Of a stretch of 64,000 nt of DNA, positions 1-60,819 are shown piece by piece (position 1 is the first letter of the stretch; each line of letters begins with the position of its first letter). The position numbers and the translations under genes were made by a program. The notes below the pieces were generated by a model. It did no database searches. It had not been told where the DNA came from and saw only the letters and a program-made list of their open reading frames with translations. Origin of the DNA: a virus (taxonomy: Duplodnaviria; Caudoviricetes); the IMG/VR virus record IMGVR_UViG_3300021400_000095, one strand, 5' to 3'.

Positions 1-74
1 CACCAAAAAGTGGCATTAAACCAAATCTATCTGCCATAGCATTAATATTTTTAATTTTATTATTTTATTAATTA

Positions 75-485
75 TTAAAATATAATATAAAGTATAAACA
101 AAGTCAAGAAAATTTGAACAAAATGTACAATTTGGTCTTGTACTAGTGTGATTTTTTTCTCATTTGCTTTTAAATCATCTGTGATGTAATGTATCATTGC
201 ATTTGCAATCCAAATACAGAACACTGAAATACCAGCAGTTGGTGTTAAAAATAGTAATGGTAACAATATCATTGCAGACCAAGATAATGAGTGAATTAGC
301 AATGCAATTTTATAATCATTTTTATAAAATTCTTGTTTTTTAAAATCATAATTTCCATTATCATCAATAAAAACATTATCAAACCACCAATCTTTCTGCT
401 TCAATTTGGAAAGGCATATTGGTTGTAGTACAAAGTCATCAACAACATGACATATAAACATTAAGATTAATAATTTCCAAAACAT
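75..485 (-). CDS. DUF3307-like membrane protein
   Basis: HVVDDFVLQ ... LLIH ... HYITD ... DQIVH histidine pattern with hydrophobic helices. Confidence 0.7.
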   Translation of the reverse strand: MFWKLLILMFICHVVDDFVLQPICLSKLKQKDWWFDNVFIDDNGNYDFKKQEFYKNDYKIALLIHSLSWSAMILLPLLFLTPTAGISVFCIWIANAMIHYITDDLKANEKKITLVQDQIVHFVQIFLTLFILYIIF

Positions 486-487
486 AT

Positions 488-628
488 TTAATATATTTTA
501 TCTTTAATATTGTTGTAAACCATGTCAACAGCAGTATCTTCATCACCACCAACAAATTCATCAATCAAATCCCATCCTTGGTCTCTGACTTCAATTAGAG
601 TAAGTCTAATTATTTCTTTTATGTCCAT
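488..628 (-). CDS. small acidic hypothetical protein (46 aa, MDIKEIIRLTLIEVRDQGWD...)
   Basis: ORF read by eye; fills the gap between infA and the DUF3307-like gene on the same strand. Confidence 0.6.
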   Translation of the reverse strand: MDIKEIIRLTLIEVRDQGWDLIDEFVGGDEDTAVDMVYNNIKDKIY

Positions 629-632
629 AATT

Positions 633-851
633 CTAAAGTCTTGCAACAATTCTTCCTCTTGTCAAATCATAGGGTGACATTTCAACCTTTACCTTATCAC
701 CAACAAGTACCTTGATAAAATTTTGTCTCATTTTACCAGATGATTGACATAAAATAACCATACCATTAGTGTCAAGTTGTACTCTGAACATTACATTTGG
801 TAAACTTTCAAGTACAACACCTGTTTGTTCAATTAATTTCTCTTTTGCCAT
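633..851 (-). CDS. infA: translation initiation factor IF-1
   Basis: 72 aa, MAKE..IE..G.V.E.LPN.MFRV.L ... [25 protein letters not shown]; ends in TAG. Confidence 0.95.
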
Positions 852-990
852 ATATTATTTTTCTTCATTAAATATTTTTTTATATATTTCTTTTGCAATG
901 TTAATACATTCTTCAGTGCTTGGTGGTTCATTTTTGCTTTTTAAAAGCATTGCACCAAAATAAATTAAATCATTTTCACTCAACATATAC

Positions 991-2142
991 TTATATAATT
1001 TTCTTTCTTATTTTATCATATGAATCTTCTTCAAAGTTATAGATATCAGCCAATGTAAGACCCTTTGTCACTTGTGGAATTTCAAGTTCTTGTACATTAA
1101 TAGGGTTTTCATCATCATTGAGTTCTTTTGCTTTTTCAGTATAGATAATCTTAAGCAATTCATTAGTTTTTTCAACAGTAAGTGCTTTAAATTCATATTT
1201 ACTTACAAGTCTTCCTTTTCTCATAAGTGCAGAATCAATATCATTAACATCAGCATTGAATGTGCAGATGAATTTAAGGCCCAAATCATCAGCAAGAAGT
1301 CCATCACTCATGTTTAATAATGTTGACACAGCTGATGTTGCACCTGTGCTTTTTCTATCTCTAATTACATTTTCACAATCTTCAAGTATAATTACATGAT
1401 TACTCAAAGTACCTAAGAAACTAGTGAATGATGGTTGACCAAGAAAATTAACAAGGTCAGGTGTTACATAAACAAATTTTTTATTTGGATTTGTTGTTAT
1501 AAGATTTCTAATATAAGTTGTTTTACCTGTTCCCTTCTCACCATGAAGAATTACAAGACCACTTTTATCATTGTCATTAATGAATTTCCTAATCTTTTCA
1601 TCTTCATGTTTAAAATTATCATTATATTGTTTTTCAAGACTGAAATTTTTTACTTCCTTGATTTTTCCTTTCTGTAAAACAAAACCTGTATTTGTTTGTG
1701 CAATTTTATATAAATTGTTCTTTTCTTCTTCAGGTAAAACATAATAATCACTAATGAAATTAATGAAATCCTTTAATGCTTCAATATTTTCATTACCATA
1801 AAGAATATAACTTTCACACACATTCTTTTCAATCCTTGCAAATATGTTCTGTTGAAGAAGTATAATACAAAAACCTACTGTTTCTTCCTGTGTTGATAGA
1901 TTCTTTGTAATATATTCAATATACTCCATCTCATTTGCATTGTACTTTTCCTTCAATTTTTCCAATATTTTAAATGAATCAAAATACATATCATTTTGCT
2001 TTTGAGAATGTGTAAACATATAACAGTTTGGAAAATAGTTGTTTACACTAAAAAATAAATTTTGAAGTGAAAGCCCATCAACTTCTGAATATATTGTAGT
2101 TAATGATTTATTTAACCTTAAGTTATTTAATAATTTGTTCAT
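991..2142 (-). CDS. AAA+ ATPase
   Basis: Walker A GEKGTGKT, Walker B IILEDCE, LLNMSDG, SRH-like IDSALMRKGRL. Confidence 0.85.
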   Translation of the reverse strand: MNKLLNNLRLNKSLTTIYSEVDGLSLQNLFFSVNNYFPNCYMFTHSQKQNDMYFDSFKILEKLKEKYNANEMEYIEYITKNLSTQEETVGFCIILLQQNIFARIEKNVCESYILYGNENIEALKDFINFISDYYVLPEEEKNNLYKIAQTNTGFVLQKGKIKEVKNFSLEKQYNDNFKHEDEKIRKFINDNDKSGLVILHGEKGTGKTTYIRNLITTNPNKKFVYVTPDLVNFLGQPSFTSFLGTLSNHVIILEDCENVIRDRKSTGATSAVSTLLNMSDGLLADDLGLKFICTFNADVNDIDSALMRKGRLVSKYEFKALTVEKTNELLKIIYTEKAKELNDDENPINVQELEIPQVTKGLTLADIYNFEEDSYDKIRKKII

Positions 2143-2227
2143 ATTTTAAATATGTTTTTTGCAAAAATACAAAAAATTGAAATTAAAAACAAAAAAATCA
2201 GCCAATTTCTTGACTGATTTAATTTAC

Positions 2228-59371: not shown

Positions 59372-60206
59372 CAAAAATAATCTTATTACTGAGATAAAAA
59401 AATCAATTAATGAAGAACTTGGAATATCAAAAATTGTCACCAATGAAACTAATTCTTTGATTTCAACTATAATAAATGATAGTAAAAAACAACCAAAACA
59501 AAATAATATGAAAAATGGCTTGTTTGATACTATGGTATTTGGTGTGCCAATCTCAGTTCAATACCAAATTTTTTATGTTAATTCATATCAAGATATTAAT
59601 ACACTTAATATTGTAAATCCTGGTAATTTAACTGATGATAATTTTATTGTAACAACTCTTTGCTATATCAAAGACCAGAATAAATATATTGATTATGATG
59701 GTTCAACCCAACATGAACTGCAACATCTGTATCAAGAATTAATGTCAGGAAAAGATTTACTTGAAAATCCTAAAATTAAAAAAATATATACAACAGCAAT
59801 TAAACTTGCAAAATCTACAAATGCTTTTGAAAAATTTGTTGGCTTTACAATTTATTATGGTAACAAATTTGAAAAAGATGCTTTCATGAATGAAATGTAT
59901 AAACAAATAATGGATAACTGGCAAATTAATCCATTTGAAACCATTAAAAAAACTGTTGTGTATAGAAATATTAATGCAATAAAAAATGCTATTGATAACC
60001 TAACAGAATACCAAAAAACAAAATTACAAGAAACTGTCCAATTCTATTTTAATAAAAATCTTAACTGGTTTATTACTATTGCAAATAAGATTGTTAAAAC
60101 CTATACAAATAAAATTGGTAAAATTATAATTAAAGCACAAAATGATATTGCTGAAAAATATCCAAAAATGACTTTTAATGAAAAAATTCAACAAAATTTA
60201 CCATAA
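59358..60206 (+). CDS. hypothetical protein with HExxH motif
   Basis: QHELQH..Q ... E.DAF; N-terminal INEELGIS. Confidence 0.6.
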   Translation: MKSYNKNNLITEIKKSINEELGISKIVTNETNSLISTIINDSKKQPKQNNMKNGLFDTMVFGVPISVQYQIFYVNSYQDINTLNIVNPGNLTDDNFIVTTLCYIKDQNKYIDYDGSTQHELQHLYQELMSGKDLLENPKIKKIYTTAIKLAKSTNAFEKFVGFTIYYGNKFEKDAFMNEMYKQIMDNWQINPFETIKKTVVYRNINAIKNAIDNLTEYQKTKLQETVQFYFNKNLNWFITIANKIVKTYTNKIGKIIIKAQNDIAEKYPKMTFNEKIQQNLP

Positions 60207-60292
60207 TTTCTTGCTTTTTTAAAAAAATATTTATATTTTTGCAAAGAAATTAAGTTTTTTTGAAAAACAATTATATTTATTAATAGAAAAAA

Positions 60293-60424
60293 ATGATTAT
60301 GTTGCAAAAAGTACATACATATAAATCCATTCAAGCCATTAATGCTAATGGTTTTGGAAGTTTTGTACCATCATGTGATTATAACCAATCACTTGAACCA
60401 AGATGGTGTAAAATAAGAGGATAA
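60293..60424 (+). CDS. putative leader peptide (43 aa) containing all 20 amino acids
   Basis: MIMLQKVHTYKSIQAINANGFGSFVPSCDYNQSLEPRWCKIRG*, after a TAnnTTTG promoter (~60234) and before a terminator. Confidence 0.6.
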   Translation: MIMLQKVHTYKSIQAINANGFGSFVPSCDYNQSLEPRWCKIRG

Positions 60425-60480
60425 GAAAATGTACAACAAAATATAATCACACATAGGTTTCTAACCACAACATATTTCCC

Positions 60481-60534
60481 AACCTCTTAGTTAAAAATTC
60501 CTTCAACAAAAGAATTAAAACCAAGAGGTTTTTT
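60481..60534 (+). terminator. terminator/attenuator hairpin
   Basis: AACCTCTT / AAGAGGTT plus T-tract; the 5' arm is also complementary to TAAGAGG at 60414-60420. Confidence 0.7.
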
Positions 60535-60552
60535 AATTTAAAGGCTTTTATT

Positions 60553-60786
60553 ATGATTTTAGTGATAAATTTACATGACTTGTATAAAACATATACTAAT
60601 AAAGATGATTTTGATTATTCAAATAGTTCATTGAAAGACTTGCAAAACTTTTTGAAAATTGCTGATGTAAACCAATTGAAAACTTGTAGCCAATTGAACT
60701 TTGACTCTTGGAAAGAACTTACTGATAAAATGAATACTGATAGAAAAGCATTCCCAAATGCATTTTTCTTGAAAGAAATTAAATAA
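60553..60786 (+). CDS. hypothetical protein
   Basis: 77 aa ORF at the head of the tRNA array. Confidence 0.45.
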   Translation: MILVINLHDLYKTYTNKDDFDYSNSSLKDLQNFLKIADVNQLKTCSQLNFDSWKELTDKMNTDRKAFPNAFFLKEIK

Positions 60787-60819
60787 TGGCATGATTTTTG
60801 TTACTATGTAAAAATACTT

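Follow-up and report, generated by a model that had tools for sequence, protein, structure and literature searches.

Loss of the dinucleotide CpG (CG in what follows) in prokaryotic DNA is usually ascribed to composition, temperature or methylation decay. Here we describe a bacterial virus, the Caudoviricetes record IMGVR_UViG_3300021400_000095, in which CG has been purged almost completely from a stretch of 64,000 nucleotides (the window), and compare it with the closest described systems. In restriction-site avoidance (Rusinov et al. 2018, PMC6286503), as in this phage, a short palindromic DNA word is removed genome-wide by selection; the avoidance reported there is substantial for orthodox Type II sites above all, with no mention of CpG. 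The classical form is present in the same phage at GATC, CTGCAG and CTCAAG. The CG purge differs in that a two-base word with no known cognate enzyme has been lost in all contexts, at a graded cost.

Three further systems share single features with the purge. The M.MpeI and M.SssI systems of Mollicutes, as cited in PMC11282364, combine context-free CG loss with a gain of TpG/CpA; set against that account, the 113 kb of phage sequence read yielded no C5 methyltransferase, CG is lost by any substitution, and new CGs vanish far faster than decay of 5-methylcytosine (5mC) permits. T4 endonuclease II (denA, PMC2764454) would follow the same self/non-self logic if the enzyme acting here were phage-encoded, but T4 modifies its cytosine instead of purging, and no such nuclease was identified in the 113 kb. 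In the CpG suppression of vertebrate viruses (ZAP, TLR9) the CG word is likewise selected against, each site bearing a graded cost; unlike it, the present case concerns a bacterial virus and extends to the stems of structured RNAs. In the literature searched we found no bacterial counterpart of ZAP/TLR9-type suppression and, within its incomplete coverage, no published report of such a CG-purged phage. A 2024 survey (PMC11282364) judged that phage CpG content is unlikely to be caused by a specific bacterial defence, and left the reasons open.

The window belongs to a virus record of 113,062 bp, whose completeness was put at 32%, and its proteins were also found on a 352,835-bp contig; the sequence read amounts to 113 kb out of 353 kb. 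Positions 1..60800 of the window contain 5 CGs, where base composition predicts 1,243, and no GATC. An earlier sequence-only reading had counted about five CGs by eye; there are exactly five (at 9065, 38413, 38419, 42599 and 53628), and GC (1,330), CC (1,400) and GG (1,284) are frequent, as it had said. Another 21 lie in the tRNA array at 60,801-64,000, where 94 are expected, so that the window holds 26. The whole 113-kb record retains 57, of which 44 belong to the RNA island (254 expected) and 13 are spread over the other 103.9 kb (2,178 expected). TpG/CpA in the window stands at 1.38 of expectation and TpA at 0.76.

The purge cuts across coding and noncoding functions. Among the 750 Arg codons of the record, 566 are AGA, 183 are AGG and one is CGN, which bears out the suggestion that Arg uses only the first two. 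NCG codons number 2, and C precedes G once at four-fold sites; because all three classes are nearly gone, the loss is independent of reading frame. Every NCGN word is depleted, non-palindromic contexts included. The tmRNA has no CG where 9.3 are expected, and the purging of structured RNAs such as this one argues for an action on DNA and not on single-stranded RNA.

Relatives place this loss on a single species. The comparison set comprised 291 loci, each 4 kb or longer and some of them duplicates, recovered with primase, capsid and polymerase probes; single-protein scans of viral contigs gave no relatives, and an alignment query was required. The primase gene (50094..51143, plus strand) served as the marker for finding relatives and for the tree. 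Across the 291 loci the observed/expected ratio (O/E) of CpG ranges from 0.30 to 1.30 (median 0.71), and sister lineages at 66-73% primase identity have values of 0.45-0.69. Conspecific strains, mostly 96-98% identical, contain 14 CGs in 112 kb against 2,269 expected (O/E 0.006). The species is thus more than 99% below its expected CG, while its nearest relatives retain about half or more. At Arg columns shared with four relatives, CGN occurs 0-1 times in the phage and 18-111 times in the relatives. In a quick version of the tree, the species is nested among its nearest relatives on a branch of 0.22 substitutions/site, with 98% clade support. No second CG-free lineage was found with the capsid and polymerase probes. 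The CG purge is real, extreme and confined to one species, and it arose on that species' own branch.

These comparisons bear directly on the simplest account, in which low GC content, loss of tRNA-Arg(ACG) or evasion of vertebrate CpG sensing emptied the genome of CG. The phage does have a GC content of 29%, and tRNA-Arg(ACG) was not found in the 113 kb. However, equally AT-rich members of the family keep an O/E of at least 0.30: the 67 related loci below 31% GC have a median of 0.57 and a minimum of 0.30, so that, as the sequence-only reading held, low GC is insufficient as a cause and the value of the phage is unlike that of GC-matched relatives. Thirty low-GC loci from the 401 genomes of the host search described below gave 0.51-1.22. 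The purge also reaches codon junctions, intergenic DNA and RNA genes. The AGA/AGG usage had been matched to the two Arg tRNAs carried (UCU, CCU); the sisters G001 and G002 also lack tRNA-Arg(ACG), yet CGN makes up 11-15% of their Arg codons. The tRNA content therefore follows or predates the purge and did not cause it. We regard this account as barely credible.

We then asked whether the deficit is maintained by selection or left by mutation, the two causes that had been proposed. Synonymous polymorphisms that create a CG between strains number 1 against 52.5 expected, 3 against 65 or 5 against 81, depending on which of three ways of masking recombined patches is used; control dinucleotides in the same test lie at 0.65-2.2 of expectation. 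These counts indicate that new CGs are still being removed by selection in present strains. A mutation-only account of the deficit would require CpG to be about 600-2,000-fold more mutable than other cytosines, and 5mC hot spots are roughly 10-50-fold hypermutable.

The tRNA genes provide a second test, with the closest tRNA of another phage as reference. Outside the T loop, the phage keeps 11 of 50 CGs and controls keep 205 of 377. Deamination yields only C-to-T and G-to-A changes. The CGs lost from the phage tRNAs show 19 transitions and 17 transversions, the same ratio as in controls; in this unpolarised comparison, a model in which the extra losses arise by deamination is rejected (p=0.002), and one in which any change is accepted, as under selection, fits (p=0.84). 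The tRNA-Pro(UGG) gene (63408..63483, plus strand) is a clear individual case. It begins A1-U72 where every plain tRNA-Pro gene of relatives has C1-G72, so the sequence-only reading had correctly singled out a genuine derived change. Two transversions remove two CGs here, and deamination therefore did not produce it.

Proteins tell a similar story. Sites that are CGN in relatives correspond to AGA, AGG or Lys in the phage. The amino-acid changes typical of deamination (Arg to Cys, His, Gln or Trp, and Ala to Val) are not enriched: Cys, His, Gln, Trp, Met and Val show no excess either overall or at the CGN and NCG codons of relatives. The balance of T and A at four-fold sites was tried as a discriminator between mutation and selection and set aside, as relatives show an equal context effect and the sites are saturated.

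Ordinary spontaneous deamination of 5mC after long CpG methylation, of the kind known from Mycoplasma penetrans or vertebrates, fits these data poorly. It has a bacterial precedent, cited in PMC11282364, and the excess of TpG/CpA that it predicts is present (1.37 in the phage, 1.21-1.27 in relatives). Beyond the hypermutability that it would demand, it is unable to clear conserved Arg CGN codons or to produce transversions, and we consider it very improbable. Selection on the word fits best, given the tRNA loss spectrum, the tRNA-Pro transversions and the polymorphism deficit. Selection against CG by whatever mechanism is thus the likely explanation, and of the two proposed causes it is selection against a CG reader that explains the data well.

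A faster, enzymatic form of deamination has more in its favour. Hyper-deamination of CpG at several hundred times the normal rate might be driven by a CpG-specific double-stranded DNA deaminase, or by a C5 methyltransferase that deaminates when the phage's S-adenosylmethionine (SAM) lyase drains SAM, and the mutational load might then also expel constrained CGs. CpG-specific and modification-sensitive double-stranded DNA deaminases do exist in bacteria (10.1101/2023.06.29.547047), the gain of TpG/CpA about equals the loss of CG in size, and by our own estimate load alone could purge Arg CGN at such rates, making the Arg comparison compatible with this account. The absence of a transition excess among lost tRNA CGs, the two transversions in tRNA-Pro and the lack of any excess of deamination-type residues in proteins all disfavour it, as does the occurrence of the SAM lyase in G001 and G002, which are CG-normal. 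Both versions appear improbable, though less so than ordinary decay. The lyase gene itself (PF23780; L278:3687-4409) lies ~14 kb before the window; its product is likely anti-restriction.

How the purge relates to restriction can be judged from word length and completeness. Type II avoidance concerns a specific site of 4-8 bp, and here all NCGN words are affected; it leads to near-absolute loss, as for GATC, and here 57 CGs persist. The purge works like restriction-site avoidance in the selection against new sites and fails on word length and absoluteness, just as it fails the tests of ordinary methylation decay. The GATC word is absent from the whole 113-kb record (~250 expected per strand) and from most of the clade. 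CTGCAG, CTCAAG/CTTGAG and GGCACC/GGTGCC are likewise absent from the record, and AGCT is at 0.29 of expectation.

Could the purge be the sum of avoidance of many ordinary restriction sites that contain CG? Other words are absent outright, and the ~27 surviving CGs outside RNA genes include none in ACGT, TCGA or CCGG and 2 in GCGC. An earlier count in which no survivor was palindromic (0/23) was weakened after the two GCGC sites appeared in another strain. Against stacked sites stands the purging of non-palindromic contexts, and TCGA is no absolute target, being present at 17 sites of the 113 kb, chiefly in T loops. The relatives G003 and G004, moreover, avoid CCGG alone without losing CG. We think such stacking improbable, marginally more so than hyper-deamination. 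In those two relatives CCGG is nearly gone (6 in G003 and 0 in G004, both strands counted) and other CG words are kept, a case of ordinary site avoidance.

The reading that we prefer is purifying selection that would remove CG from the species' DNA in all flanking contexts and via any substitution type. A DNA-acting enzyme may read CG as its core target and impose a small cost for each CG in the infected cell, and such a graded cost would let CGs linger in tRNAs or as young polymorphisms. That the cost is graded and not absolute follows from the survival of T-loop CGs alongside the complete absence of GATC. The candidate agent would be a stable host defence, similar to restriction-modification with a two-base core, whose host modifies its own CG for protection. 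The missing GATC, CTGCAG and CTCAAG words and the SAM lyase speak for restriction pressure on the phage. Parts for a CG-reading system exist: bacterial CpG deaminases are known, restriction of modified CG is documented in work cited in PMC12707154, and phages have host-DNA nucleases with self-protection. A host CG-reading defence is a tentative candidate for the selecting agent, at somewhat less than even chances.

Several observations weigh against this reading. A phage carrying 57 CGs in 113 kb would not survive a classical restriction enzyme. Host defences tend to be replaced quickly, and a purge of this completeness is hard to square with that; no host system with a two-base CG target was identified. 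CG is retained in half of the T loops, above the prediction of a simple equilibrium; the tRNA loss test is small; and the rise of TpG/CpA is equally predicted by deamination.

The host is probably a Bacteroidales species, judging from the bins in which loci of related phages were found and from a phage OmpA-like protein that resembles a Bacteroidota cluster. One relative lies in a yak-rumen bin, which points to a rumen origin for the phage. Searching 401 genomes (from the order of a Bacteroidales bin) by DNA returned only diverged gene matches and no spacer-like match among the matches listed, in a weak test that scored two candidates per genome. An OmpA-family outer-membrane protein gene at 11235-12368 is common to the phage and its relatives. 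The gene set is that of a jumbo phage and includes primase, SbcC, DHFR-thymidylate synthase, two sigma factors, ~30 tRNA genes and the tmRNA. Its nearest named primase relatives are remote (Microcystis phage Mel-JY01, 29% identity; Flavobacterium phage vB_FspM_immuto, 27%). The phage resembles the Immutovirus-related jumbo phages of Bacteroidota in this primase and in the Bacteroidales bins of its relatives, and differs from them in its CG-free state, which among the 291 loci is found only in the present species.

Alternatively, the phage's own enzyme may be the selecting agent, either a nuclease or nickase for host DNA or a CpG methyltransferase with a harmful mark, the phage being spared because it lacks CG. 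An agent that travels with the phage would explain the persistence of the purge, its limitation to one species and the lack of CG in accessory genes; T4 endonuclease II, which degrades host DNA while modified cytosine shields T4 DNA (PMC2764454), is a precedent; and the gene could lie in the 68% of the genome (240 kb) beyond the 113 kb read. On the other side, a C5 CpG methyltransferase, suggested earlier as something to look for in the phage, was not found: PF00145 has no match in those 113 kb or in three complete relatives, and just one C5 hit occurs among all family loci searched. No nuclease or deaminase was detected among the species-specific open reading frames (ORFs) scanned in the 113 kb, and PADLOC, run on ten proteins of the window, returned no relevant match. 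An ancestor with thousands of CGs would also have needed interim protection. We hold a phage-encoded agent to be possible but unlikely, and less so than the other rivals.

Two DNA methyltransferases of the window are of the amino type and not C5. One, a weak N6_N4_Mtase match (34181..35356, plus strand), has orthologs in CG-normal relatives; the other, with an SPPY motif (44326..45141, minus strand), is 73% identical to its ortholog in CG-normal G003. In strain L177 (7896-9689) the equivalent of the latter carries an intein-like insertion that is nearly CG-free.

Surviving CGs had been suggested to mark constrained RNAs or recently acquired DNA. The second part fits poorly, for coding CGs are mostly private point changes and strain-specific accessory DNA is itself purged (3 CGs in ~7 kb, ~160 expected). 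Almost all coding CGs are private to a single strain or strain group. The two at codon junctions of a HAD gene (38413..38420) are private synonymous changes where both other strains have T, and the one at a codon junction of DHFR-thymidylate synthase (53628..53629) is not in L173 or L175. No other strain spans the CG in an ORF of 823 amino acids (9065..9066), and an intergenic CG (42599..42600) is common to strain L180 and replaced by T in L177. Recombined patches hold only some of the coding survivors. Two strains share an Arg CGG in a DUF932 gene, possibly reflecting nucleotide-level constraint at the conserved RLVCSNG motif in which it lies. This sole CGN codon is located in G000 ~20.5 kb past the window end (L439:6481).

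In the tRNA island, which starts within the window (60820..64000, plus strand), the 21 CGs are found chiefly in T loops and T stems, and their survival is clustered by gene. The 30 T loops of the phage read TTCGA (14), TTCAA (14) or TTTGA (2). TTCGA is kept in 14 of 30, and three relatives keep it in 65 of 80 T loops (p=0.0007). Genes that keep it have 1.36 other CGs per tRNA and those that lost it 0.25 (p=0.001), a link that relatives do not show; some tRNA genes may have been purged long ago and others less fully, or constraint may differ between genes. The altered loops were reported accurately from the sequence, but the site is not invariant: relatives have some TTCAA, and tRNA-Arg(CCU) (61093..61166, plus strand) shares its TTTGA loop with the CG-normal relative L004. 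Similarly, the sigma-54-like boxes do all read TGGCATG (13 of 13 under a strict pattern; on the plus strand at 60787..60793, with further copies at 60951, 61311 and 61847), but CG-normal relatives use both TGGCACG and TGGCATG, so the phage fixed a variant that TGGCAYG already allowed. The tRNA gene at 61890..62415 (plus strand) is split by an intron of 451 nt, with homology to that of tRNA-Arg(UCU) in G001 and G002; the intron has no CG, and the whole gene has 1 against 16 expected (16-17 of 21 in relatives).

Other features of the coding system were recorded alongside. Code 11 suits the genes well, with TAG as the stop in just 5 of 79 long ORFs, and a tRNA with a CUA (amber-type) anticodon at 58425-58497 is found in CG-normal relatives too. 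CTT is the commonest Leu codon, and two tRNA-Leu genes with an AAG anticodon lie in G000 at 67357 and 67827 (window numbering). Between the tRNA genes, from 61660 to 63837 and beyond, are tRNA-like elements containing ACAGCAA, similar to those called by ARAGORN in L004, L019, L028, G001, G003 and G004.

Depletion of CG in this species exceeds that of compositionally similar sister phages about a hundredfold, and the strain data show that it is enforced in the present day. So extreme a purge points to an enzyme that reads the two-letter DNA word CG. That a bacterial or phage enzyme tells self from non-self by bare CG in DNA, and so drove a 353-kb phage to more than 99% CG loss, is a proposal to which we give just under an even chance; such an enzyme would resemble restriction with a two-base target and be the prokaryotic parallel to CpG sensing. 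The phage offers a clean comparative system, in which a single purged species with many strains stands beside unpurged sisters whose genomes are complete; the enzyme could be identified by comparing gene content or from a host methylome. If the proposal is true, a nuclease or deaminase that reads CG would form a new class of factor, for defence or for host takeover, and would be useful in methylation analysis.

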